DNA of 43,280 nt from Deltaproteobacteria bacterium (GTDB lineage Bacteria > UBA10199 > GCA-002796325 > 1-14-0-20-49-13), in assembly GCA_016180865.1 (NCBI GenBank), contig JACPAJ010000012.1, positions 1 to 43,280 on the forward strand, written 5' to 3'. The position numbers and the translations under genes were made by a program. Below are positions 2,000 through 38,112 of the stretch, one piece after another. Numbering within the stretch: the first letter of the stretch is position 1; each line of letters starts with the position of its first letter. Below the pieces are notes generated by a model. That model had not been told where the DNA came from. It was given only the letters and a program-made list of their open reading frames with translations, and did not search any database.

Positions 2000-3982
2000 C
2001 TATTGCCTTCCCTCTACCAATGTATTCACAACGCTGGGATCCGCGAGTGTCGTTGTATCGCCGAGATTTGTAATATCGCCTTCGGCGATTTTCCGCAAAA
2101 TTCTTCGCATTATTTTTCCGCTTCTCGTTTTCGGCAGCGAGTCGGTAAAATGAATTTTATCCGGACAGGCAATCGGGCCGATTTCCTTGCGAACATGGCC
2201 GACAAGCTCTTTCTTTAAATCATCCGACGGATGATTGCCGCTCTTCAGCGTGACATAGGCATATATTCCCTGCCCTTTTATTTCATGCGGCATTCCAACA
2301 ACCGCCGATTCCGCAACCTTTGGATGGCTCACGAGCGCCGATTCAACTTCCGCCGTCCCAATTCGATGTCCGCTGACATTCAATACATCATCGATGCGAC
2401 CCATCAGCCAAAAATAGCCGTCTTCATCTTTGCGGGAACCGTCACCCGTGAGATAGACGCCCGGAAAACGGACAAAATACGTATCTTTGAACCTCTCATG
2501 CTGGCCATAGACCGTTCTCATTATCCCCGGCCACGGCTCCGTTATCACAAGATAGCCGCCCTCGTTCGTGCCGACCTCTTTCCCCTGCTCGTTAAATATT
2601 TTAGGAACCACGCCGAAGAACGGCACCGTTGCCGAGCCCGGCTTTGTCGGAATTGCGCCCGGCAGCGGCGTTATCAATATTCCGCCGGTTTCGGTCTGCC
2701 ACCATGTATCGACAATCGGGCAGCGCTCGCCACCGACGTTATTATAATACCAGATCCACGCTTCAGGATTGATGGGCTCGCCAACGCTTCCCAAAATGCG
2801 CAGTTTTTTAAGATTATGCTTTTTCGGCCACTCCTCGCCCTCGCGCATCAGCGCACGGATCGCGGTCGGGGCCGTGTAAAATATCGTCACGCCGTGCCTC
2901 TCGCAAACATCCCAGAAGCGGTCGGGGTGCGGATAATTCGGGATCCCTTCAAACATCACTTCAGTTGCTCCGCAAAGGAGCGGGCCATATGCAATATATG
3001 TATGGCCTGTAACCCAGCCGATATCGGCTGTGCACCAGAAGACGTCGGAATCGTGATAGTCAAAGATATATTTGAATGTCGTCGCCGTATAGACCATATA
3101 TCCGCCGGTTGTATGAAGCACGCCCTTTGGCTTTCCGGTCGAGCCGGAGGTGTAAAGAATAAAGAGTGGATCTTCGGCGTCCATCTCTTCCGGTTTGCAG
3201 TCTGCCGAAGCATTCTTCACGACATCATGCCACCAGAAATCGCGGCCGGCCTTCATCGGAACATTGCCGTCCGCATGTTTGTAAACGATGCATGTCTTAA
3301 CGGGATGACCGGCCTTCTCACACGCTTCCATCGAAGCATCGGCGGTCGTCTTCATCGGTATTTTTTTGCTGCCGCGGAACGCTTCATCGCAGGTTATCAT
3401 AAACGCGCAGCCGCAATCAAGAGTGCGATCGCGCAGCGAATCTGCCGAAAACCCGCCGAAGACAACGCTGTGAATGGCGCCTATTCTGGCACAGGCAAGC
3501 ATCGCAATCGGCAGCTCGAGAATCATCGGGAGATAAATTGAAACGCGATCTCCCTTTTTTACGCCCTTTTCTCTCAGGACATTTGCGAATTTGCAAACTT
3601 CCGTGTAAAGTTCTTTATACGTGATTTTCTTGCTCTGATTAGGCTCGTTTCCTTCCCATATTATGGCAACGCGATCTCCGCGGCCGTTTTCGATCTGGCG
3701 GTCAAGGCAGTTGAACGACATATTTGTTTTTCCGCCTTCGAAATATTTAATATCTATCTTATTTTTAAAATCGTATGAACGGACTTTTTTCCACGGCTTA
3801 TACCAGTGGAATTCCTTAGCGATATCGCCCCAGAAGCCTTCAGGGTCTTTAACCGAGCGATCGTACATTTTTTTGTACTCGTCAAAATTTTTGATCCATG
3901 CGTTTTTCGAAAGTTCTTTCGGCGGATCGAACTTGCGGTTTTCCAGCGACATGGATTTGATGGTTGATGGGTTGGTTGTCAT
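2000..3982 (-). CDS. acs: Acetyl-CoA synthetase (AMP-forming)
   Basis: 660-aa ORF with the [14 protein letters not shown]-binding motif and full-length resemblance to Acs. Confidence 0.93.
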
Positions 3983-4072: not shown

Positions 4073-5896
4073 CTAGTTTACGGAAACCTTAAGCGTAATA
4101 AAGTCCCCTGGTTTCAAGCGCTTAGACGTTTTTTTGTTAAAATTATTCCACTTCATTATATCGGAAACTGAAACCCCGTATTTTTTAGCGATATCCCATA
4201 AAGTGTCGCCATTTTTAACTTTATAAGAAAGCGCATCCGGTTTTTCATCATTATTTTTGGGTTCTTTATTTTCCTGCGGCAGCTGTATTGCCAATAAATC
4301 GCCGGGAATGCTTCCGCTCTTCTCTATTGACATCTGCGGTGGATTATTGGCGCTCGAAGACAATGCAACTGTTTCGGATGATGTCGGCAATGAGGCAAAA
4401 AGCTTTAAATTCTGTCCGATCGCAAGATCCTTTTCTGCCGTCAGCGAATTCCATCCTTTTAGTTCATTAATGCTGACTCCGTATTTCTGGGCGACTTTCC
4501 ACCATGAATCTCCCCTTCTCACTTTATAAGTAGCCGCCCCTTGTTTGCGGCTCGTTTTGCTTGCGACCGCAACGGATGCGGTTTCTTCCGTTCCGTATAC
4601 TTTTAATGTCTGTCCTGTCCGTATCAGATTTCTCTTCACGCGGTTCCACCTTTTCAAGTCCGACACAGAAACGCCGTAGTCCTGAGCGATGAGCCCAAGC
4701 GTCTCACCTGGCTGAACGCGATGTTTGACAAATTTCCCGGACGGCCTTTCGTTTTCGGCAACCGCAACTTCTTTAGCCCTCTGTTTTGTTGCTCCGCCAG
4801 TCGGTATAATAATGCTCATTCCTCTTTTCAAGGAGGACGCGTTCTGCAAATCGTTCGCGGCTAATATTTCTCGAACCGAAACGCCGTAACGACGGGCAAT
4901 TCTGCCGGCGGTTTCTCCGCGTTTTACAATATGCCTTGCTACCATCATCCTCTCTGACGAAGGAATTTTTGCGAATGCAACTTCAAATTCACCCGCCGAA
5001 CCTTTCGGGAGATTCACGCTGTAATTTCCTTCATTTGGAGGAGTGGCGCCGCGGATGAGCTCCGGGTTTAGCTCCTGAACCACATCCAAAGGAACGCCGG
5101 CGCACTTTGAAATAACCTGAAGATCCGTCTGGCTGTCGACAGTCGACTTTTCGGTTTCCACAGGACTGTCAAAAACCACATCCCCGAATCCGAACCTCTC
5201 CGGCGACTTGGCGATTATCGCCGCAGCGATAAATTTTGGGACGTAGTCTTTTGTTTCGGTCCTCAAATAGCGGCGGTCGCTTTCTATCATTTTCCAAAAA
5301 TCCCTCGTCCCCGTTCTTGCGACAGCCTTTCCTATTTTCCCTTCGCCGGCGTTATAAGCAGCCATGGCGAGATACCAGTCGCCAAATTCATCGAAAAGAT
5401 CTCTAAAATATTTTGCCGCCGCTATGGTTGAATCGACCGGATCGCGCCTCTCATCCATCCAGTTGTTTATCTGCAGGTCGTATCGCCTCCCAGTGCTCCT
5501 GATAAATTGCCAGTAGCCTGCCGCGTGAGCCCGCGAATAAGCGCGCGATGAAAAACCGCTTTCAATCATCGCGATATAAACCAGATCCTGCGGCAGGGCA
5601 TATTTTTCCAGAATTTCCTGCATTAGAGGAAGATACTTGCCGGACCTTGCCAGATATCTGGCAAAATGGCTCCTGCCCGGACCCTGAAAATAATCCAGCC
5701 ACGCTACCACGCGGTCGTTAACCGTGATAGGAACGTCAAATTTAGGAAGCCTTGATTGTGAAATGGCCTTGGGCGTCCATTTTGAAGTCCGCTCAACCAT
5801 GGAAGTTCTTGCGCACCCGAATGACAAAGCCATTACCAAAAGCATTAATCCGCTAAGACCGGTTCGAAACATCATCTCCTCCGTTTGACGAAACAA
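4073..5896 (-). CDS. Membrane-bound lytic murein transglycosylase (MltD-like) with four LysM repeats
   Basis: Lipoprotein-type signal (LSFGC), SLT catalytic region (IESGFS...AAGYWQF), and four repeats of the type Y-V-x-GD/ET-x-IA-x-YGVSV-x-WN. The true start may be an internal Met. Confidence 0.85.
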   Translation of the reverse strand: MFRQTEEMMFRTGLSGLMLLVMALSFGCARTSMVERTSKWTPKAISQSRLPKFDVPITVNDRVVAWLDYFQGPGRSHFARYLARSGKYLPLMQEILEKYALPQDLVYIAMIESGFSSRAYSRAHAAGYWQFIRSTGRRYDLQINNWMDERRDPVDSTIAAAKYFRDLFDEFGDWYLAMAAYNAGEGKIGKAVARTGTRDFWKMIESDRRYLRTETKDYVPKFIAAAIIAKSPERFGFGDVVFDSPVETEKSTVDSQTDLQVISKCAGVPLDVVQELNPELIRGATPPNEGNYSVNLPKGSAGEFEVAFAKIPSSERMMVARHIVKRGETAGRIARRYGVSVREILAANDLQNASSLKRGMSIIIPTGGATKQRAKEVAVAENERPSGKFVKHRVQPGETLGLIAQDYGVSVSDLKRWNRVKRNLIRTGQTLKVYGTEETASVAVASKTSRKQGAATYKVRRGDSWWKVAQKYGVSINELKGWNSLTAEKDLAIGQNLKLFASLPTSSETVALSSSANNPPQMSIEKSGSIPGDLLAIQLPQENKEPKNNDEKPDALSYKVKNGDTLWDIAKKYGVSVSDIMKWNNFNKKTSKRLKPGDFITLKVSVN

Positions 5897-13857: not shown

Positions 13858-15084
13858 CTATAATTTATTAACCTCTTCGGCGAATTTATCGCCTCTCTCG
13901 GCGTAATCTTTAAACATGTCCAGGCTTGAGCATGCCGGAGAAAGAAGCACGACATCCCCTTTAAGAGCTCGGGCCGCGGCCTCCCTCACCGCCGCGGCCA
14001 TTGAGTCGACCAATACCGTCTCCGTTAAAGCTCCAAGCTCCCCTGCTATTTTTTCGCGCGCCGCTCCCATTAAAATAAGAGCCTTTACCTTGTTTTTTAC
14101 CGGCTCTTTCAGCGGATTATAACTTCCGCCTTTATCAAGCCCGCCGGCTATCAGAACAACTTTCGAATCGAAACCTTCGAGAGATTTTACAACTGCGCCG
14201 ACATTCGTCCCTTTCGAATCGTCGAAATATTTCACTCCGCCGATTTCGCGCACAAACTGATTCCGGTGCGGCAGCCCGCTGAACGTTTCAGCCGCGCGCT
14301 GGATAGATTTTGCATCGCATCCGCAGATAAAAGCTGCCGCTGCCGCAGCATACATATTTTCTTTATTGTGAGCGCCGGTCATTTTCATCTTATCAATAAT
14401 AGCTGAATATTTCGCTTCGATCTTTTTTGCGGAAAAACCCGTTTTCTTTGCGGAGGAGGCGCCGGCTATTTTCGCCGCAATAGAATCATCCGCATTATAA
14501 ATAAAATAATCCGCGACCGTGAGATTCTTTATGATTAGAGCCTTTGCATCGATATATTCCTGCATGCCGGCATATCTATCAAGATGGTCCGGCGTAACGT
14601 TCAGAAGAACGGCAACGTGCGGATGGAAAGTAGGGCTGATCTCAAGCTGATAACTCGAAACCTCCAGCACGACATAGTCCGCGCCTTTGATATTTGCGGC
14701 CATATCCAGCAAAGGCGTGCCTAAATTTCCTCCAACCGGCGCTTTTTTGCCGGCAGCCTTTAACATTTCTCCTATCAGGGTCGTAACGGTTGATTTGCCG
14801 TTTGTGCCGGTAATTGCAACTATCGGCGCGTCAAATTTTAAAAGTTCCATTTCGCCTACAATAGGCTTTCCCATCGCTCTCGCTCTTTTTATTCCGTCGA
14901 GCGTCAGCGGAACTCCCGGGCTTGGAATAATAATGTCGGCTTCTTCAAAAAGATTACTAGGATGCTTTCCAAAGCGATCGTCCGTAACAGTCACAAGCGC
15001 GCCTTGTTCAAGGCAATAGCGCTTTGCGGCCTGCCCGGATTTTCCAAAACCTACTATCAATATTTTTTTCCCTATTAAATCCAT
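13858..15084 (-). CDS. murD: UDP-N-acetylmuramoylalanine--D-glutamate ligase
   Basis: Rossmann N-terminus (VGFGKSG) and Mur ligase P-loop GTNGKST. Confidence 0.93.
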   Translation of the reverse strand: MDLIGKKILIVGFGKSGQAAKRYCLEQGALVTVTDDRFGKHPSNLFEEADIIIPSPGVPLTLDGIKRARAMGKPIVGEMELLKFDAPIVAITGTNGKSTVTTLIGEMLKAAGKKAPVGGNLGTPLLDMAANIKGADYVVLEVSSYQLEISPTFHPHVAVLLNVTPDHLDRYAGMQEYIDAKALIIKNLTVADYFIYNADDSIAAKIAGASSAKKTGFSAKKIEAKYSAIIDKMKMTGAHNKENMYAAAAAAFICGCDAKSIQRAAETFSGLPHRNQFVREIGGVKYFDDSKGTNVGAVVKSLEGFDSKVVLIAGGLDKGGSYNPLKEPVKNKVKALILMGAAREKIAGELGALTETVLVDSMAAAVREAAARALKGDVVLLSPACSSLDMFKDYAERGDKFAEEVNKL

Positions 15085-15104
15085 CTCCCCATCTCCCCAT
15101 CTTG

Positions 15105-16184
15105 CTAGCGCAGCTTCAACGTTGACAAACTAAGCAAAGCCAGTATCAGCGCAATAATCCAAAAACGGACAATCACCTTCGATTCTTTCCACCCTTTCAA
15201 CTCAAAATGATGATGCAGCGGAGCCATTCTAAAAACCCTTTTCCCCGTCAATTTGAACGAAATAACCTGAGTGATGACAGAAACCGTCTCCAGCATAAAA
15301 ATCCCGCCCACAAGCGTCAGCAAAAGCTCATTTTTCGTAATTACAGCTATCATTCCCAAAACAGCGCCCAATGGAAGCGCCCCGACATCGCCCATAAAAA
15401 TATCGGCCGGCTGTGCATTGAACCATAAAAAACCTATCAGCGCCCCCATAATGCCGCCGCAAATTATCGTAAGCTCGCCGGCTCCCGGAATAAAAGGAAC
15501 CGCAAGATACGAAGCCATCTTCATGTGGCCGGCTGTGTATGAAAGAATCGCATATGCAAAAAACGCCATGATTGCCGGAACCGCGACAAGGCCGTCCAGC
15601 CCGTCGGTCAAATTGACGGCGTTGGATGTGCCGACAACAATAAATGACGCAAGAGCGACAAATGCCGTGGTGCTTAGAAGCGGATAAAATGATTTAACGA
15701 ACGGAACGGCCAGATGCCTGTCGAAGCCGAGGCCGTCAAAAAGAAACAGGCACGCGAACAGCGCAACGCCGACCTGCAGCGGAAATTTATATCTGGCGCG
15801 AAGCCCGTGAGAATCCCGCAGTATTATTTTTCGGTAATCATCCAGAAAGCCTATCAAAGCATAGGCAATGCCAACGCCCATCACAATAAAAACATACGGA
15901 TTGTCGAGCCTTGCCCACATAATTGTCGCAAATAAAACCCCCGCCCATATGAGCAGTCCGCCCATTGTGGGAGTTTTGCCTTTTTGAAGATGCATAATCG
16001 GGCCATCATCCCTGATCGACTGCCAGAATTGTTTTCTCTGCATGTAAGCGATCAAAAAGCGGCCGAAGACAAAATAAATTATCATCGCCGTAAACATCGC
16101 CGCAAACGTGCGGAATGTTATATAGCGAAAAACATTAAAGGCGGCAAACTGGTCGTGCAGCGGATAAAGCAAATGATATAACAT
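15105..16184 (-). CDS. mraY: Phospho-N-acetylmuramoyl-pentapeptide transferase
   Basis: 359-aa polytopic protein with typical MraY motifs (NAVNLTDGLDGL, HHHFE). Confidence 0.95.
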   Translation of the reverse strand: MLYHLLYPLHDQFAAFNVFRYITFRTFAAMFTAMIIYFVFGRFLIAYMQRKQFWQSIRDDGPIMHLQKGKTPTMGGLLIWAGVLFATIMWARLDNPYVFIVMGVGIAYALIGFLDDYRKIILRDSHGLRARYKFPLQVGVALFACLFLFDGLGFDRHLAVPFVKSFYPLLSTTAFVALASFIVVGTSNAVNLTDGLDGLVAVPAIMAFFAYAILSYTAGHMKMASYLAVPFIPGAGELTIICGGIMGALIGFLWFNAQPADIFMGDVGALPLGAVLGMIAVITKNELLLTLVGGIFMLETVSVITQVISFKLTGKRVFRMAPLHHHFELKGWKESKVIVRFWIIALILALLSLSTLKLR

Positions 16185-16187
16185 TGT

Positions 16188-17624
16188 TTAAACTCCCACG
16201 TTGTCCTTCAAATATTCAACCACCTGTTCCATCCTCATTCCCCGCGAACCCTTCACAAGAACGATATCGCCGGTTTTTATTTCGGAAATAACAAGCTTTT
16301 TCAGCTCTTCCGCATCGGCCGCAACTGCAACATTCGCGCTGTCCATGCCGTTTTTACGAGCCCCGTCGGCGACATCTTTCGCATAGCTGCCCGTCACAAA
16401 AAGTTTTGCGACTCCGAACGATGCCGCGTTTTTTCCAAGCTCCGAATGTTTTTCGGATGAAGCTTCTCCGAGTCCCAGCATATCTCCAAGCACGGCAATA
16501 AACCTTCCCGCTCTTTTGGCTCCGCTCACTGTTCTAAAAGCGGCATGCATCGATGAAGGATTGGCGTTGTAACTGTCATTTATAAGCTGGACTCCGTTTG
16601 CAAGCTGCACTCTTTCCATCCTCATTTTCATCTTTGAAAAATTTTCGAGGCCGCTGATCATGCTGTCTGCAGATGCGCCTGCCGCAATGCCTGCGGACAC
16701 GGCAGCCAGCGCGTTCATCACATTATGGACACCCGGCACGGGCAGCGTCATCGAGTATTCTTTTTCCCCGACATAAAAAGTGAGGCCGACTTTATCAAGG
16801 CCTTCCGAAATCATTCTTCCAAATCGCACGTCACAGTTATTCTGCATGCCGAAATAAATTTTATTCCCCTTATATTTTTTGGATAAACTGACCACCCACG
16901 GATCTTCCGCATTAACTACAATTGTTCCATCAGGATCCATCGCCTCAAACAGTTCCCCTTTGGCTAAAGCTACATTTTCGACAGTATGCAGCTTTTCAAG
17001 ATGCGCCGGGTTGACATTTGTAATGAGCCCGATGGTTGGTCTGGCTATTTCAGTTAAAGTTTTAATTTCGCCCTTGGCGCTCATTCCCATTTCAAGCACG
17101 GCTATTTCGGTTTCAGGCGTTATTCTCATTGCCTGCAGCGGAAGGCCTATTAGATTATTAAAATTCCCTTCGGTTTTAATAGTTTTCCGCGTCGCGGAAA
17201 GAGCGCTGGCTATCATCTCTTTTGTCGTCGACTTTCCGTTTGATCCGGTCACGGCAATAACCGTGCACTTAACTTTGTTCCGCCAGCATGAAGCAATATC
17301 GCCAAGCGCATGGATTGTATCGTCAACCTCCAGTATCCAGAAGTCGGAAGTCAGAAGACAGACGTCGGAAGTCTGATGTCTGATGTCCGATGTCCGACGT
17401 CCGATGTCTGTCTTCTGACTTCGAACTGCTCCACATGCCCCCTTATCCATGGCTTGCCCCACAAAATCATGCCCGTCAAAGTGCGGCCCTTTAATCGCAA
17501 TAAATAAATCCCCCTTTTTAAGGGTGCGCGTATCGATCGATACGCCTGTAATCTGCGATACATTTCCCTTTTGCATCACTTCGGCATCGACCGCCTTCGC
17601 TATTTCATCTATTTTCAATTCCAT
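16188..17624 (-). CDS. murF: UDP-N-acetylmuramoyl-tripeptide--D-alanyl-D-alanine ligase, carrying an in-frame repeat insertion
   Basis: Mur ligase P-loop GSNGKST and colinearity with E. coli MurF, except for about 20 extra residues (see the repeat at 17338..17425). Confidence 0.92.
   Translation of the reverse strand: MELKIDEIAKAVDAEVMQKGNVSQITGVSIDTRTLKKGDLFIAIKGPHFDGHDFVGQAMDKGACGAVRSQKTDIGRRTSDIRHQTSDVCLLTSDFWILEVDDTIHALGDIASCWRNKVKCTVIAVTGSNGKSTTKEMIASALSATRKTIKTEGNFNNLIGLPLQAMRITPETEIAVLEMGMSAKGEIKTLTEIARPTIGLITNVNPAHLEKLHTVENVALAKGELFEAMDPDGTIVVNAEDPWVVSLSKKYKGNKIYFGMQNNCDVRFGRMISEGLDKVGLTFYVGEKEYSMTLPVPGVHNVMNALAAVSAGIAAGASADSMISGLENFSKMKMRMERVQLANGVQLINDSYNANPSSMHAAFRTVSGAKRAGRFIAVLGDMLGLGEASSEKHSELGKNAASFGVAKLFVTGSYAKDVADGARKNGMDSANVAVAADAEELKKLVISEIKTGDIVLVKGSRGMRMEQVVEYLKDNVGV
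17338..17425. repeat. Heptamer-periodic palindromic element inserted in frame in murF
   Basis: Arms at 17347..17369 and 17400..17422 are reverse complements, 22 of 23 nt. The whole tract is built of 7-nt units (CGGACAT, CAGACAT, CTGACTT and similar). It is translated as QKTDIGR-RTSDIRH-QTSDVCL-LTSDFWI. Confidence 0.85.
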
Positions 17625-17627
17625 AAT

Positions 17628-19145
17628 TTACACATCCCTCGACAAGCTCGGGACAAGCTTGCGCACTTCTTCCCTGTCGTCAAAATGCCGGACTTCTTTT
17701 CCGACTATCTGATAAGTTTCATGCCCTTTGCCGGCTATAAGAACAATATCCCCTTCCTGCGCTTTTTCTATCGCGCAGCAAATTGCTTTTTTTCTGTCCT
17801 CTTCCACAAGATAACCGTGCCCGTTTGCCCCAAGAGTTTTCAGGCCGGATTTTTTTATCCCTGCTAGAATATCGGAAATAATTTTCGATGGATCTTCCGT
17901 CCTTGGATTGTCGCTTGTTACAATCACGATATCGCCCAAACTTGCGGCAACATTTCCCATAACCGGTCTTTTTGCTCTATCGCGGTCGCCTCCGCATCCA
18001 AAAACAATGATCAACTTGCCATGTGTCAGATTTTTAAGTGTTTCCGAAACCTTTTTGATTGCATCCGGCGTATGAGCATAATCGACAAAAACAGAAAACC
18101 CCTTTGGCGATCTTATCTCTTCAAGGCGCCCCGGAACAGAATCAAGAAGCTCGATTCCGTTTTTGATTTTTTCCAGCGGCACGCCGAGGCCTCCAAGAAG
18201 CGCTGTGGCGGCGGCAATATTTTGAGCGTTGAAATCTCCTTTAAGGCTCGTAAAACAACCAAGCGTTCCCCACGGCGACTTTATTTTAAGGCTGCTGCCG
18301 CCTTTCAAAGCTTTAAACTCCTCCACAAAAACATCCGCTTTGCTATTCGCGCCGAAAGAGAATGTATCAATTCCTTTATGTCTTTTTGCCGCGGCAAGAA
18401 TTTTCTGGCCGTACGGATCAAATGCGTTTGCAACCGCAACTTTTTGTTTTTTGGAAGATGCAGGCAGAAATTCCGAAAAAAGCAGGCTCTTGGCCTTGAA
18501 ATAGCCTTCCAAACCGTCATGATAATCCAAGTGATCATGGCTCAAGTTTGTAAAAAGCGCCGCGTCAAATTCTATCCCCTCTACGCGCCGCTGCTCGAGA
18601 GCGTGCGAAGAAACCTCCATAACAACATCTTTAACCGCAGCTTTCTGCATTTTACTCAATAATTTATGGAGATCATAGGACATCGGCGTGGTGTTTTGCG
18701 ATTCCAATTGGACGTCTTTATACCGGCAGTTGACTGTTCCGATGACTCCGGGATCGCGTTTCAAGCATTTTAACACCGATTCGATGATGTAAGTGATTGT
18801 AGTTTTGCCGTTAGTGCCCGTTATGCCCATTATTCTCATCATGGCTGACGGATTGCCGAAAAATTCGGATGATATTCTTGCAAGAGCGAGCGAAGTATCG
18901 GAGACAACTATATTGCAGGTTCCTTCCAGCGATCTGATCGGATGATCGCTCACTATGGCAGCCGCTCCTGCCCTGCAGGCTTCATTTATAAACTGGTGGC
19001 CGTCCGCGCGCGTGCCGCGAATCGCGACGAAGCAGGAGCCTTTTTTGACCCGTGCCGAATTATAGGCAATATCTTTTATATCGACATCGGAGAAGCCTAT
19101 AACCTCCTCGTGCTCCAGTTTTTTTATTAAATCTTTAACTTTCAT
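17628..19145 (-). CDS. murE: UDP-N-acetylmuramoyl-L-alanyl-D-glutamate--2,6-diaminopimelate ligase
   Basis: GTNGKTT P-loop and the DNPR motif (TSDNPRTEDP) typical of meso-DAP-adding MurE. Confidence 0.93.
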   Translation of the reverse strand: MKVKDLIKKLEHEEVIGFSDVDIKDIAYNSARVKKGSCFVAIRGTRADGHQFINEACRAGAAAIVSDHPIRSLEGTCNIVVSDTSLALARISSEFFGNPSAMMRIMGITGTNGKTTITYIIESVLKCLKRDPGVIGTVNCRYKDVQLESQNTTPMSYDLHKLLSKMQKAAVKDVVMEVSSHALEQRRVEGIEFDAALFTNLSHDHLDYHDGLEGYFKAKSLLFSEFLPASSKKQKVAVANAFDPYGQKILAAAKRHKGIDTFSFGANSKADVFVEEFKALKGGSSLKIKSPWGTLGCFTSLKGDFNAQNIAAATALLGGLGVPLEKIKNGIELLDSVPGRLEEIRSPKGFSVFVDYAHTPDAIKKVSETLKNLTHGKLIIVFGCGGDRDRAKRPVMGNVAASLGDIVIVTSDNPRTEDPSKIISDILAGIKKSGLKTLGANGHGYLVEEDRKKAICCAIEKAQEGDIVLIAGKGHETYQIVGKEVRHFDDREEVRKLVPSLSRDV

Positions 19146-23188: not shown

Positions 23189-23276
23189 GGAGAGATGGCC
23201 GAGTGGCTTAAGGCGCCCGCTTGGAAAGCGTGTGTACCGCAAGGTACCGTGGGTTCGACTCCCACTCTCTCCGCCA
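23189..23276 (+). tRNA. tRNA-Ser (anticodon GGA), type II with long variable arm, CCA encoded
   Basis: Hand-folded cloverleaf: acceptor GGAGAGA/TCTCTCC, 3-bp D stem, anticodon loop TTGGAAA, variable arm GTACC-GCAA-GGTAC, T arm GTGGG-TTCGACT-CCCAC. One C-U mismatch in the anticodon stem. Confidence 0.9.
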
Positions 23277-30534: not shown

Positions 30535-30543
30535 TTTTTCCTT

Positions 30544-30628
30544 GGAGAGGTGACCGAGTGGTTGATGGTGCCGGTCTTGAAAACCGGTGTGCAGAAATGT
30601 ACCGGGGGTTCAAATCCCTCCCTCTCCG
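30544..30628 (+). tRNA. tRNA-Ser (anticodon UGA), type II, no encoded CCA
   Basis: Acceptor GGAGAGG/CCTCTCC, D stem ACC/GGT, anticodon stem CCGGT/ACCGG with loop CTTGAAA, long variable arm, T loop TTCAAAT. Confidence 0.9.
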
Positions 30629-32991
30629 TTTGCTCCTGAAGGGGGTGAACGGAGGGGCTCCTGATTTGCTCCTGTGCTTAGGAAATGCGCGCCTTCGACT
30701 TTGGAACCATTGGAAGAATAGTTAACGTTTATCCTGCCATCGTCTTCTATATATAATTCGCTGGCGACGTCGACTGGAGGCGCAATTACTTCCGCCTTTT
30801 TCCCGATTTCATCGCACCATTGCCGGATCTTATCTGCAAGCTCATGGCCTGTGCTGCAGCCCAGAAGTATAATTCTTCCTCCGTCTTTCACCTTATTTAA
30901 GTACGTCTTGATTTCTTCATCGCTCACGTCAATTTTCGAGAGCTCATTATCATAACTTTCGCTGAGCGCAAAATCTTTTGCAGAGCCATGCCCTCCAAGA
31001 ACAAGAGCATCTACCGAATTATCGTCTTCTTTCGCCAAGGCTTCATATAACTCCGTTTCACTGTATGGCTCGGCAATCTCCAAGTTATATTTTTCAATAA
31101 TTTTATCGACGCCTTGCGCCGCAAATGCGCCGTTATGATCGTGTCCGGGCAAAGAAACGAAAGCACGAGGTTGATCATACACAGGATTTTTTATCTTTTT
31201 TACGATATCTTTATTGTATCTGCTCCAGTGAGATACTTTTTTATCATCCAGCCATTCGCAATCGGCTGCTGCTTCCGCCAAAGTTATTTTCCCGTCGAAA
31301 AATCCGGAATTATAAGCATACCCGAATAATTCAACTATGCGGTAATATCTGAATTTATTAACAACCTCCGGCCAAAGCGGATCGTTTTTCAACAGCGCTA
31401 GCTTATTATCATCAAGCAATTTAAAACCTGACATCGCTTTTGACAGATAACATTTATTAAAATACATAATATCCAAAAACATGCCCATTTCATCCCCGTT
31501 TTGGTAAACATCAAGTCTTGACGCAAAACTCATTAAATCTTCCAAATAATACGACTTGTTTCTGCCGTAAACCCCCATAAAACCGTTCACGGTATCAATG
31601 ATAAGATCATCCTTGATTTTATAATCTCTCATTCTCTTGATGCAGGAGTTAATCGAGCGAAGGCTTGGAAACCCGAGCGAAATAATGTCGGCGAATCTCT
31701 CTTTTGCTTCAGAAGAAACATTCATTTCTTTTAATTGGCCAAAAAGTTCTTTTAGCTCTCCTTCGGAGAAATCATATTTATAAGATGACGCTTGCACAGC
31801 CCAGCAAAGTCTCTTATCTTCAGGAACAATACCTTCTGCCACTTCAAACGCTCTCGGTATAACATTAAAATTTTTCCCACTGAAAAAACACACTTTAATA
31901 ATTCTTCGAAGTTGTTCTTTATCTTTGGAAATATTTTTCAGCCATTTTACATTATCAGCAAACGTCGAAAATGGAAAACCAGCGTAAGAATCGCCAACAT
32001 CCCCTGCTGCTAAATATTTTTTTAAATCCGCAACGGGATCCAGTTCGGCCAGCATCAATCCCTCCGCAACCTTTGGGATTGAATCTATTATTTGACCGGC
32101 CGCAAAATATCGCGAGGCGGATTTTATTATTATCTTGATATCTTCTTCTCCAACACCCCTCTCTCTTAAATATCTGACTGCTGATTCTAACCTGCCATCG
32201 AATATGCAAAGGCCGTTAAGATGCTCTCTTTTTTCCTCCAGTGCAGCTCTTACAAATGAAGCTAATTCAAAACTGTCGAAAAGCTTTAGCCCGGCATTTA
32301 TAGAAATCATGTCTTCCGCATATTTCAAAGCAAAAGGATCTCTTTTGATTATCTCTTTTATTTCGGCATCGGTCAGCCCCAAACCGGAATATGCGCCGAT
32401 GGCGCCTTGCAAATGCCCGGCTAATACGGTCACAGAAAAAGGGCCTTCGACGATTATCGATTTTAAGAATCCTTTCTTTTCGTCTTCGGAATTAAACTTC
32501 AATTTGCCAAGAGCTTCATAAGCCTTGGTTATCATTCCTCCTTCACCAGCACGGTATGCATAATAACCCGCTCCATCAACGATTTGAGATTCAGAGAGGC
32601 CGATAAGACCAAACTCCGGAACCCGTTCAGCTATCGGCTTCAGATAGTTTTTTATCCCCTCATCATAATTCGACTCCTCCCTATTAACGATAAACCCTGA
32701 AAGGAGAAAAAGTTTTTCATAAGGGTCGGCGATAGAACACTTTTCCAGCTCTGCATTGAACCTGCTAAGTAGATTTTTGGAAAATATCTTTGAAACAGCA
32801 CGCTCTTCCAAAGGAGAGTTTTTGAAGCTAAGATATTCTTCAAGCGTAATAATTTTATCCCCGTTCGCATCCGCCAAAGAAATATCCGATTTCCCATCGG
32901 CATGCTGGAGCTCCGCCTCATCAATCCTAAAATCCTCATTAGAATCAACCGGTTGGAAGCTTTTCAGTATCTCTCTGATATACGTAGTCAT
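30610..32991 (-). CDS. Large (793 aa) multidomain protein: N-terminal EF-hand-like loop, C-terminal His/Cys module (caspase/CHAT- or DUF4347-like)
   Basis: [12 protein letters not shown] fits most EF-hand loop positions. The C-terminus has ALVLGGHGS ... [14 protein letters not shown], the beta-strand-His ... beta-strand-Cys layout of caspase-fold/CHAT-like domains. The last 19 nt overlap the tRNA-Ser gene on the opposite strand. Confidence 0.7.
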
Positions 32992-36654: not shown

Positions 36655-38112
36655 TTACGGTGCTGCTGAAAGATCATCATCTTTTTGTAGGGCTTTAGCT
36701 TGCTGGACCGCGGTAATTGCTTCATCTCTAGCAATTTCTAATTCCGGATATTCGGAAATAGCCCTTTTAACATAATATGGAGACATTTTAACGTCTCTTG
36801 CTGCAGCTACCACATCGCCTTTATTCGCGCGCAGAGCGTTTTCAATCGCCGTTATTTGCTCAGGACTAAACTCAAGCTTAGGCCGGCCACGCCCTCTTTT
36901 TGGCTTCATAGCTTTGGCCGCCGCTTTTTGCGCCGCAGCCTCTGCCCTAGAGCTCCTTACCGCGGCTCTTTCCTCATTTAATATTCTTTTAAGGTTCGGG
37001 TTTCTGGAAATAGCTATCTGCACTCTATGCATAAGCATTTGAACGTCTCTCGCGACGGCTGCCACATTACCTTTATTCGCGCGCAGAGCTTTTTCAATCG
37101 CAGTTATTTGCTCCGGACTAAACTGAAGTTTGAAGCGGTCTCCTCTCCCTTTGTTAGAACCTTTTATATTGGTAAATCTTTTAATTGGACTGCTTTCCGG
37201 AGCTCTTTTTATCCGTTGCGTAATTGAACTTAGTGTTTTTCCGATCCACCTTGCCACATCTGTCCTGCAACCATTGAAGTGTTTTAACAAAACGATCAGA
37301 TCAAAAAGGTCATAATATTCTTTCCCTTTTGGCGGCAAATATTTCTCCCCCCTTCCGCGTTCGCCCAATTTTTCTGGTGGAGTTTTAACCACCATCAATA
37401 AACCGGCGCCGGCAGCAATTGCCTCTCCTCCGGCCAATGCTGCAGTTTCAGAACCCGCGATTGCAGCGGTCGCAACTCCGCCGCGAGAAACTGTTACAAC
37501 CGGTCCTCCGCCGGAAGAAAATGTGCCGGAAGCTAATTCACCGGCTCCGGAAACAAGGCTTAAAGCGCCGAAGATTATTGCCGACGCCATTATGCCGGTT
37601 TCAGTGAATTCTTTGGAAGCTTGATATACATCCTTCCCATCCGGCCATCTTGCCATCTCGCCATCTACCAACCCCGCTATTTGTGAAAATACGAAAATAC
37701 CACTGTTATAAACACCGGTCGCAATTTCGCATCCAATTTCACCCGTCCGGTAAACGACAGCAGCGGGCCCCCTTGGAATCTCATTTATAATTTTTAGCTC
37801 ATTATCCGCGATACCAAGAGACGATGCTCCAAAAAATTTCAAAAACGCCATGCCGATGCCGGCCTTGGCGGCAAGAGACGGATCATGAATATCTTTTAAG
37901 ATGCCGGTTTGGACAAATTTATCTATCTCCCCTATCGCCTCAAGCCCTCCTTGAGCAAGCGTATGGGTAGCCCAATAATCGGCGGTAGTCCTGTAATACC
38001 CGGTAGATTCAAAATCCGCTTTTAAATCAGCATATTGCTCCGCCCAAAAATCATGAGCATCCCTGAAAAGAGGCCTTGCAATATATCTTAATATTTCTGT
38101 TCCTATGGCCAT
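36655..38112 (-). CDS. Hypothetical protein with a Gly/Ala-rich hydrophobic centre and three C-terminal resolvase/Fis-like HTH units
   Basis: Two near-identical units (K-L-x-FSPEQITAIE-x-ALRANKG-x-V-x-A-x-ARDV) plus a third more distant unit (VARWIGKTLSSITQRIKR). The N-terminal ~250 aa is unassignable. Confidence 0.7.
   Translation of the reverse strand: MAIGTEILRYIARPLFRDAHDFWAEQYADLKADFESTGYYRTTADYWATHTLAQGGLEAIGEIDKFVQTGILKDIHDPSLAAKAGIGMAFLKFFGASSLGIADNELKIINEIPRGPAAVVYRTGEIGCEIATGVYNSGIFVFSQIAGLVDGEMARWPDGKDVYQASKEFTETGIMASAIIFGALSLVSGAGELASGTFSSGGGPVVTVSRGGVATAAIAGSETAALAGGEAIAAGAGLLMVVKTPPEKLGERGRGEKYLPPKGKEYYDLFDLIVLLKHFNGCRTDVARWIGKTLSSITQRIKRAPESSPIKRFTNIKGSNKGRGDRFKLQFSPEQITAIEKALRANKGNVAAVARDVQMLMHRVQIAISRNPNLKRILNEERAAVRSSRAEAAAQKAAAKAMKPKRGRGRPKLEFSPEQITAIENALRANKGDVVAAARDVKMSPYYVKRAISEYPELEIARDEAITAVQQAKALQKDDDLSAAP
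36790..37128 (-). repeat. Internal in-frame duplication (two 87-nt copies, 252 nt apart) encoding the HTH units
   Basis: 36790..36876 versus 37042..37128 are about 76 of 87 nt identical by hand alignment. Confidence 0.8.

Follow-up and report, generated by a model that had tools for sequence, protein, structure and literature searches.

Published work describes heptamers as the most abundant long simple sequence repeats (SSRs) in most bacterial genomes and proposes slippage as their source (Mrazek et al. 2007, as cited in PMC4679880 and PMC4692102). Described heptamer repeats include GGGAATC in Xanthomonas and GGGGAYT in Nostoc (PMC4692102), TAACTGA in Beggiatoaceae (PMC4679880), and the STRR heptamers of cyanobacteria. 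The Xanthomonas repeats lie mostly near the ends of open reading frames (ORFs), most of them are transcribed, and 70–75 cases per genome are inverted pairs of heptamer arrays able to form stem-loops (PMC4692102). Two other described systems involve repeats that are translated within genes: Rickettsia palindromic elements (RPEs), which are ~150 bp long and occur in dozens of copies, in families with conserved peptides (PMC10969869), and the fast-evolving in-ORF tandem repeats of Borg elements, which reportedly keep the frame and encode disordered protein segments (PMC9879509). Here we describe a heptanucleotide array within murF, the gene for UDP-MurNAc-tripeptide--D-Ala-D-Ala ligase, in a 43,280-nucleotide stretch (hereafter the window, meaning the whole stretch) of a groundwater metagenome-assembled genome (MAG) labelled Deltaproteobacteria. 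We conclude that the tract is probably a heptanucleotide repeat, kept in frame within a surface loop of the enzyme that tolerates it, which would have expanded in three-unit steps and become palindromic by templated inverted duplication.

The murF gene is an intact ORF of 478 amino acids on the minus strand (16188..17624). A preliminary description of the window, made from its letters without database searches, had noted a tract of ~88 nt built of 7-nt units within this gene. Our analysis supports that observation and refines the tract to 84 nt (17339..17422, minus strand), comprising 12 units of the shape GA-NN-TC-N and corresponding to residues 68–96 (R SQKTDIGRRTSDIRHQTSDVCLLTSDF W). On the coding strand, read from 17422 to 17339, the first six units are GAAGTCA GAAGACA GACATCG GACGTCG GACATCG GACATCA, and the last six are GACATCA GACTTCC GACGTCT GTCTTCT GACTTCC GACTTCT; the array is flanked by GCAGTTC and GGATACT. 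Tandem Repeats Finder (TRF) reported period-7 arrays at 17338–17373 and 17371–17408, with 5.1 and 5.4 copies, respectively. Identity in the loop region was 0.75 at a lag of 7 and 0.69 at a lag of 14, with values of 0.13–0.28 at the other lags below 14. The pattern (GANNTCN)x3 had 10 overlapping matches in the tract and 0 elsewhere in the window, and shuffled sequences gave 0.14–0.16. By TRF, by direct reading of the units, and by lag-7 identity, the tract consists of several head-to-tail 7-nt units, as a long SSR does. The reading frame stays open across the array in the translation of the 478-codon ORF, giving the 7-residue rhythm QKTDIGR / RTSDIRH / QTSDVCL / LTSDFWI that had been noted at the outset; tryptic peptides encoded by the tract include TSDIR and HQTSDVCLLTSDFWILEVDDTIHALGDIASCWR.

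We compared the loop among the closest relatives of the window MurF, using the span that separates the conserved motifs FDGH and ALGD as its length. This distance is 61 residues in the window, 54 residues in P0001 (locus L001; 81–82% identity), 45 residues in P0002 (69% identity), and 47 residues in P0003, P0005, P0006, P0007, P0012, and P0013 (62–67% identity). Relative to 47 residues, the loops of 54 and 61 residues are longer by 7 and 14; at the nucleotide level the gains are 21 and 42 nt, which correspond to three and six heptamers, such that relatives differ at the locus by whole units, as is expected of a long SSR. Unit counts follow the same order, with 12 in the window, 9 in L001, and ~5 in L125, L126, and L127. 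The nine units of L001, where TRF also finds a period-7 array at the murF loop, are GAAGTCA GAAGTCA GACGTCG GACGTCG GACATCA followed by GACATCA GACATCA GGCTTCC GACTTCT. Different units occupy the orthologous loop in the other lineages: (GGAAGAA) x4.9 with 100% matches in L125 (P0003) and (GCAAAGC) x4.1 in L126 (P0002), both by TRF, and GAAGCAA / GAAGCAG-type units in L127 (P0006), for which TRF gives GAAGCAA x2.7. Decayed heptamer arrays are present in L128 (P0005) and L129 (P0007), and the murF loops of L130 (P0012) and L131 (P0013) have no heptamer periodicity. When the whole murF gene is scanned in 35-nt windows, lag-7 identity peaks on the loop (codons 66–83) in 7 of 9 lineages. The arrays of the relatives open with a similar CGAAG/CAAAG sequence, and a GAAG-NNN rhythm is common among them. 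The presence of heptamer periodicity with other units at the orthologous loop indicates that the site is most likely an old, evolving simple-sequence repeat and not the product of a recent transposition. As to whether the additional residues are lineage-specific, a question raised in the preliminary description, the extra length is found in the window and, to a lesser extent, in L001, but the heptamer periodicity of the loop is shared by six relatives.

Arrays of the same kind occur elsewhere in the murE-to-murD region of these relatives. The gene at the murE position of L126 contains an in-frame array (160–191; AGTTCGG AGTTCGG AGTGCGG AGTGCGA ...) whose translation, EIVRSSECGVRS, falls in a variable loop. 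Six other lineages lack periodicity at this site, and in length the loop is within 1 residue of that in the window MurE. L127, whose MurF is 62–64% identical, has a CTGATAA x4 array between murF and mraY (2973–3001) and an intergenic heptamer hairpin (4094–4149) of the murF-tract unit type, in which GGAAGTC units face TGACTTC units (−30.6 kcal/mol, z −4.8). This hairpin starts a few bases past the mraY stop, before murD. The murE array of L126 and the hairpin of L127 show that the heptamer process is active within the clade of the window.

In its head-to-tail 7-nt units, variable unit number, unit drift, and inverted pairing, the murF tract is like the known bacterial heptamer SSRs. Unlike those repeats, which are mainly intergenic and under-represented in coding DNA, it is translated in an essential enzyme; it is also limited to three-unit steps, and its units are GA-NN-TC-N, whereas the known repeats are G-rich or TAACTGA. 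As with the amino-acid repeats of Borgs, an in-frame nucleotide tandem repeat gives a disordered segment (PMC9879509). Borgs are giant archaeal extrachromosomal elements, whereas murF is an essential chromosomal gene. Repeat units within Borg ORFs are reportedly divisible by three, whereas the murF unit is 7 nt long and the frame is kept by unit triplets alone.

The product of the host gene has the three domains Mur_ligase, Mur_ligase_M, and Mur_ligase_C of Pfam. MurF entries of the Protein Data Bank (PDB) match it in sequence at ~E 1e-65 (E. coli 1GG4 at E 3e-65), and an AlphaFold 2 (AF2) model matches MurF structures in fold at E 1e-42. The P-loop G127SNGKST (residues 127–134) is retained, as are all invariant catalytic residues (alignment A1). 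Together with its dcw context, the three domains, the P-loop, and the MurF fold place the protein in the Mur ligase family as MurF, in agreement with the earlier assignment to a cell-wall enzyme of the dcw operon. In the AF2 model, which has a mean predicted local distance difference test score (pLDDT) of 89, residues 74–91 score below 50 and lie between strands 65–69 (GAVRS) and 96–100 (WILEV) of the N-terminal domain; the loop precedes helix 103–117 and the P-loop. The model thus places the tract in the loop of a beta-hairpin of the N-terminal domain, and not in the inter-domain linker proper. The preliminary description had suggested ~20 extra residues, the tract standing in place of an inter-domain linker of ~10. 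The extra residues were confirmed, since a gap of 19 residues faces the tract in E. coli MurF (1GG4) and the closest relatives without the expansion are 14 residues shorter than the window MurF; the location was not, the modelled site being the beta-hairpin loop. Its suggestion that the insertion might map to a surface loop agrees with the predicted disorder of this loop. Indels at the tract loop are also present in the more distant MurFs P0029, P0097, and P0098 (alignment A1).

We next consider the inverted repeat. On the mRNA, the 5' arm (GAAGTCAGAAGACAGACATCGGA) corresponds to 17400..17422 and the 3' arm (TCCGACGTCTGTCTTCTGACTTC) to 17347..17369 of the minus strand. These 23-nt arms match at 22 of 23 positions, exactly where the preliminary description had placed them, and are nested in 45-nt arms with 80% complementarity. 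A perfect stem of 17 bp pairs 17347–17363 with 17406–17422. Between the arms lies the array centre (17370..17399, minus strand), made up of units 5–7 (GACATCG GACATCA GACATCA) with portions of units 4 and 8; in the predicted hairpin it provides the loop and the weakly paired top. The strong mRNA hairpin anticipated from the letters was recovered as a predicted fold of −55.7 kcal/mol for a 116-nt RNA (z −6.2; 0 of 200 shuffles folded as well) and of −50 kcal/mol for a 103-nt RNA (z about −6.2). The corresponding fold in the sister lineage L001 has −28.7 kcal/mol (z −2.8) and a longest perfect stem of 7 bp, and the murF loops of L125, L126, and L127 fold no better than shuffled sequence (z +0.6 to +0.8). 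Hairpin strength therefore runs from strong in the window, through weak in L001, to none in the outgroups. Because the GA-NN-TC-N unit has an identical shape on either strand, any such array is partly self-complementary, and the longest perfect stem in shuffled arrays averages ~10 bp. Among 2000 unit-order shuffles, 11 attained a stem of 17 bp, as did 16 of 2000 skeleton-preserving shuffles, less than 1% in either case, indicating that the palindrome exceeds the symmetry inherent in its unit. There is no U-run after the stem, which is followed by GGAUACUGGAGG, and no terminator-like site at the tract; we rejected an intrinsic terminator on the lack of a U-run 3' of the stem.

The difference between the window and L001 points to how the palindrome may have formed. 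A segment of 21 nt, GACGTCT GTCTTCT GACTTCC (17346..17366, minus strand), is present in the window and absent from the 81%-identical murF of L001. It contains the exact reverse complement of the 5' end of the array, in which the atypical unit GAAGACA is mirrored as GTCTTCT. Because GACTTCC occurs on both sides of the segment, its ends can be placed only to within one unit. From this sequence comparison, the segment most likely arose as a templated inverted duplication, via strand switching on the quasi-palindromic array. Quasipalindrome-templated mutation, in which synthesis switches strand or template at an imperfect inverted repeat, is known mainly from point mutations and small mutation clusters in laboratory E. 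coli and phage. Such a process would account for an exact reverse complement of 21 nt that perfects an imperfect palindrome, although the putative murF event, unlike the laboratory cases, is drawn from a two-species comparison.

A history that would accommodate these observations begins with an ancestor of the groundwater clade that already had ~five GAAG-NNN-like units at the murF loop. Replication slippage, unit turnover, and decay would then have left different units in each lineage. Since a 7-nt unit is not divisible by 3 and murF is an essential gene, the frame would be kept only if units were gained or lost in threes (21 nt, 7 aa), and such steps would have taken the loop from 47 to 54 to 61 residues. 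In the lineage of the window, one 21-nt step would have been the reverse complement of the 5' end of the array, made by strand-switch (template-switch) synthesis, and this step, acting on GA-NN-TC units, would have produced the 17-bp perfect hairpin. Most likely, the protein tolerates the encoded 7-residue-periodic peptide as a disordered passenger, with the mRNA hairpin as a by-product and the changes at the site presumably neutral.

Several observations weigh against this account. The 21-nt difference between the two sequences compared could be a gain in the window or a loss by slippage between GACTTCC units in L001. Simple expansion is also insufficient to explain all of the arrays, since P0003 has a perfect array of 4.9 units with an unchanged loop length, and the murE array of L126 alters the length by 1 aa. 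No indels, and so no variation in unit number, were seen in contigs of four groundwater runs, although contigs drop rare variants. The search for further copies of the tract spans the 43-kb window and 17 kb of L001, such that a low-copy family in the genome is conceivable. Finally, a 22-nt string of the tract (GTCAGAAGACAGACGTCGGAAG) is also present in an mnmG heptamer array of the unrelated high-GC L123, and a separate groundwater contig has GTCTGTCTTCTGACTTC twice, with unrelated flanks. These shared strings could reflect chance among very common GACTTCT-type arrays, or could hint at spread.

The contig with GTCTGTCTTCTGACTTC (Logan, runs X1, X3, and X5) matches the window at 17347–17364 and 17405–17422. 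Its two copies are 35 nt apart in direct orientation, with the flanks ...GCTCTGTTTAT | ... | TGCCGCTCACAATTAAG... The ratio of its depth to that of the window genome varies between runs, indicating that it belongs to another organism, and hence that the odd unit recurs outside murF.

The preliminary description had likened the tract to RPEs, and a non-autonomous palindromic element of the RPE type, or a miniature inverted-repeat transposable element (MITE), that transposed in frame into murF and was tolerated there would share several of its properties. Like an RPE, the tract is palindromic DNA that is translated in a housekeeping gene at a site tolerated by the fold (PMC10969869); it adds residues relative to E. 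coli MurF and it can form a hairpin. Many conserved genes carry in-frame heptamer arrays, and similar short strings occur in unrelated groundwater contigs and in the mnmG of another organism. By contrast, the 43-kb window has no second copy of the arm with up to 3 mismatches allowed, and neither the window nor the 17 kb of L001 has a further GANNTCN array. We scanned metagenome contigs of the Joint Genome Institute (JGI), a collection that lacks the window's own sample and accordingly gave no self match, with a 20-nt arm pattern; neither of the 2 matches is a copy of an element, one being a probable chance match within a secretin-like gene (L124) and the other an array of 5 units that lies in frame within the mnmG gene of an organism of high GC content (L123 1903–1945). 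A 47-aa concatenation of the tract peptides from two lineages, used as a query against 5.8 billion proteins, yielded 2 word-sharing candidates, none at E 10 or better. There is no target-site duplication and there are no distinct termini in the flanks, heptamers running throughout, and we found neither a peptide common to insertions in unrelated proteins nor an empty orthologous site with terminal repeats and a target-site duplication. Whereas RPEs are ~150 bp long, with dozens of copies at unrelated sites and conserved family peptides, the tract is 84 nt long, was found once in the window, and encodes a unique peptide at a site where relatives at 62–69% identity already have a homologous heptamer-periodic repeat. 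The difference from the sister lineage, moreover, is exactly three units inside the array and not the presence or absence of the whole tract. The in-frame, palindromic, and tolerated nature of the tract thus stands, but its origin by transposition is very unlikely. Still further removed is the possibility that low-complexity sequence led to an artefact of assembly or scaffolding, to which we assign practically no weight. Repeats of this kind frequently break assemblies, and many short, low-depth contigs with unrelated flanks stack on the tract, matching 30–34 nt of it (depth 650 vs 44). The tract is, however, identical in the independent NCBI MAG GCA_016183165.1 (L002); in the groundwater runs X1, X2, and X4, it is crossed together with both flanks by single contigs with 0 differences and 0 indels; two overlapping pieces cover it in run X3; a JGI contig of the sister species has the homologous 9-unit version; and the reading frame is intact. 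On the identical MAG and the spanning contigs, we rejected an artefact. The unrelated short contigs instead point to an abundance of comparable heptamer arrays in the groundwater communities.

Selection could also have acted on the hairpin at the RNA or DNA level, through processing or stability of the long dcw transcript or through a translational pause once the N-terminal domain has been made, with the peptide incidental. The stability of the hairpin (z about −6), a 17-bp stem beyond the inherent symmetry of the array, the weaker hairpin of the sister lineage (z −2.8), and the similar hairpin between mraY and murD in L127 (z −4.8) are all consistent with this idea, as are the location near ORF ends and the transcription of most Xanthomonas heptamer repeats noted above. 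Relatives at 62–69% identity, however, have arrays without a hairpin, indicating that the hairpin arose recently and lacks conservation; the stem is not followed by a U-tract or any signal resembling a terminator; and the two hairpin-bearing sequences are too few for covariation. We consider selection of the hairpin unlikely, albeit the least unlikely of these alternatives. Adaptive value of the 7-residue-periodic peptide itself, such as a docking or regulatory role for this loop of MurF, is more improbable than either selection of the hairpin or transposition. Two lineages with 81% identity have kept a similar sequence (SQK-D-GRRTSDIRHQ-SDF), and MurE-MurF complexes are known (PDB 8F5D is among the matches). 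The loop is nevertheless predicted to be disordered, its sequence is dictated by the nucleotide repeat, the loops of relatives are entirely different, and no homologous peptide was found elsewhere in the 5.8-billion-protein collection. An in-frame heptanucleotide repeat remade by slippage and template switching therefore remains our preferred explanation of the tract.

To place this repeat among others, we scanned GTDB genomes with (GAMNTCN)x4, which gave at least 120 stretches from many phyla, the genome of the window not being among those listed; the loci L003–L122 amount to 822 kb. Period-7 arrays of at least 4 units number 134 in these 822 kb (120 loci that were chosen for a heptamer array), and periods 5, 6, and 8–11 give 0–3 arrays each in the same array-chosen loci. 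GA-NN-TC-N arrays are in frame in conserved proteins of unrelated phyla, most of them inside Pfam domain matches, and several of the Pfam matches that hold in-frame arrays are 10–50 residues longer than the profile. In-frame arrays were found in PrmC (L022 4430–4463), RecG (two arrays, L041 4121–4147 and 4717–4743), RecJ (L064 6735–6761), an RlmI-like methyltransferase (L086 750–783), KdtA (L116 969–1002), UvrA (L029 4241–4267), a histidine kinase (L050 3311–3337), and a sugar transferase (L070 6012–6038), and the mnmG array of L123 described above is of the GA-NN-TC-N type too. Of the 134 period-7 arrays, 37 were not selected by the pattern, and 5 of these 37 have the GA-NN-TC-N shape, the units being diverse. 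This proportion weakens the case for a special GA-NN-TC-N family with a mechanism of its own.

The in-frame arrays of MurF, MurE, PrmC, RecG, RecJ, UvrA, MnmG, KdtA, and the histidine kinase raise the tentative possibility that heptamer arrays are a general, still-active writer of 7-residue-periodic disordered loops into housekeeping enzymes across phyla. It is similarly conceivable, if doubtful at this stage, that such arrays originate de novo within variable loops, are altered only by steps of 21 nt, and are sometimes template-switched into hairpins. If true, this general process would be a bacterial counterpart of RPEs and Borg repeats, operating via a 7-nt-specific slippage or repair mechanism. 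The murF tract belongs to a repeat type that is already known, albeit as an unusual representative. Of more interest as a lead are the in-frame arrays in several phyla, which suggest an under-described source of loop insertions and disordered segments. At murF itself, a frame-breaking repeat unit can persist in an essential gene by changing in unit triplets (21 nt, 7 aa). Slips of one or two units should be lethal, making the site a built-in mutational hazard, and yet it has lasted across lineages at about 62–81% protein identity. The tract also offers a worked example of the birth of a palindrome, in which an inverted duplication would have arisen inside a repeat array. A practical caution is that assembly, binning, and gene calling can go astray at such tracts, which draw in metagenomic k-mers of unrelated origin.

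The gene order at the locus is murE-murF-mraY-murD. The upstream neighbour of murF, murE, is an ORF at 17628..19145 (minus strand) with 54% identity to the L126 gene at the murE position, and the downstream neighbour, mraY, is an ORF at 15105..16184 (minus strand) whose syntenic genes in L001, L125, and L126 contain Glycos_transf_4. Between the mraY stop and the murD start (15081–15102) is an 8-nt unit repeated 2.8 times, which reads GATGGGGA GATGGGGA GATGG on the coding strand; it contains three ATGs spaced 8 nt apart, each preceded by GGAG, and the last ATG alone is in the murD frame. In L002 (GCA_016183165.1, JACPFB010000037.1), a run of N at 1947–2022 lies within murF, such that the public annotation gives the gene as two pieces, one of which has been submitted as a 'partial' MurF (P0011). 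The break reflects a gap in scaffolding that lies downstream of the repeat and has no connection with it.

Elsewhere in the window, an imperfect 8/16-nt periodicity (CTTCCCATCCGGCCATCTTGCCATCTCGCCATC) is present at 37633–37677, within or near the ORF at 36655–38112. An Rfam search of the window returned two tRNAs and nothing further. Both are tRNA-Ser genes, at 23189–23276 and 30543–30629, with the anticodons GGA and TGA, and the second overlaps the stop-codon end of a minus-strand ORF at 30610–32991 in the mechanical ORF listing.

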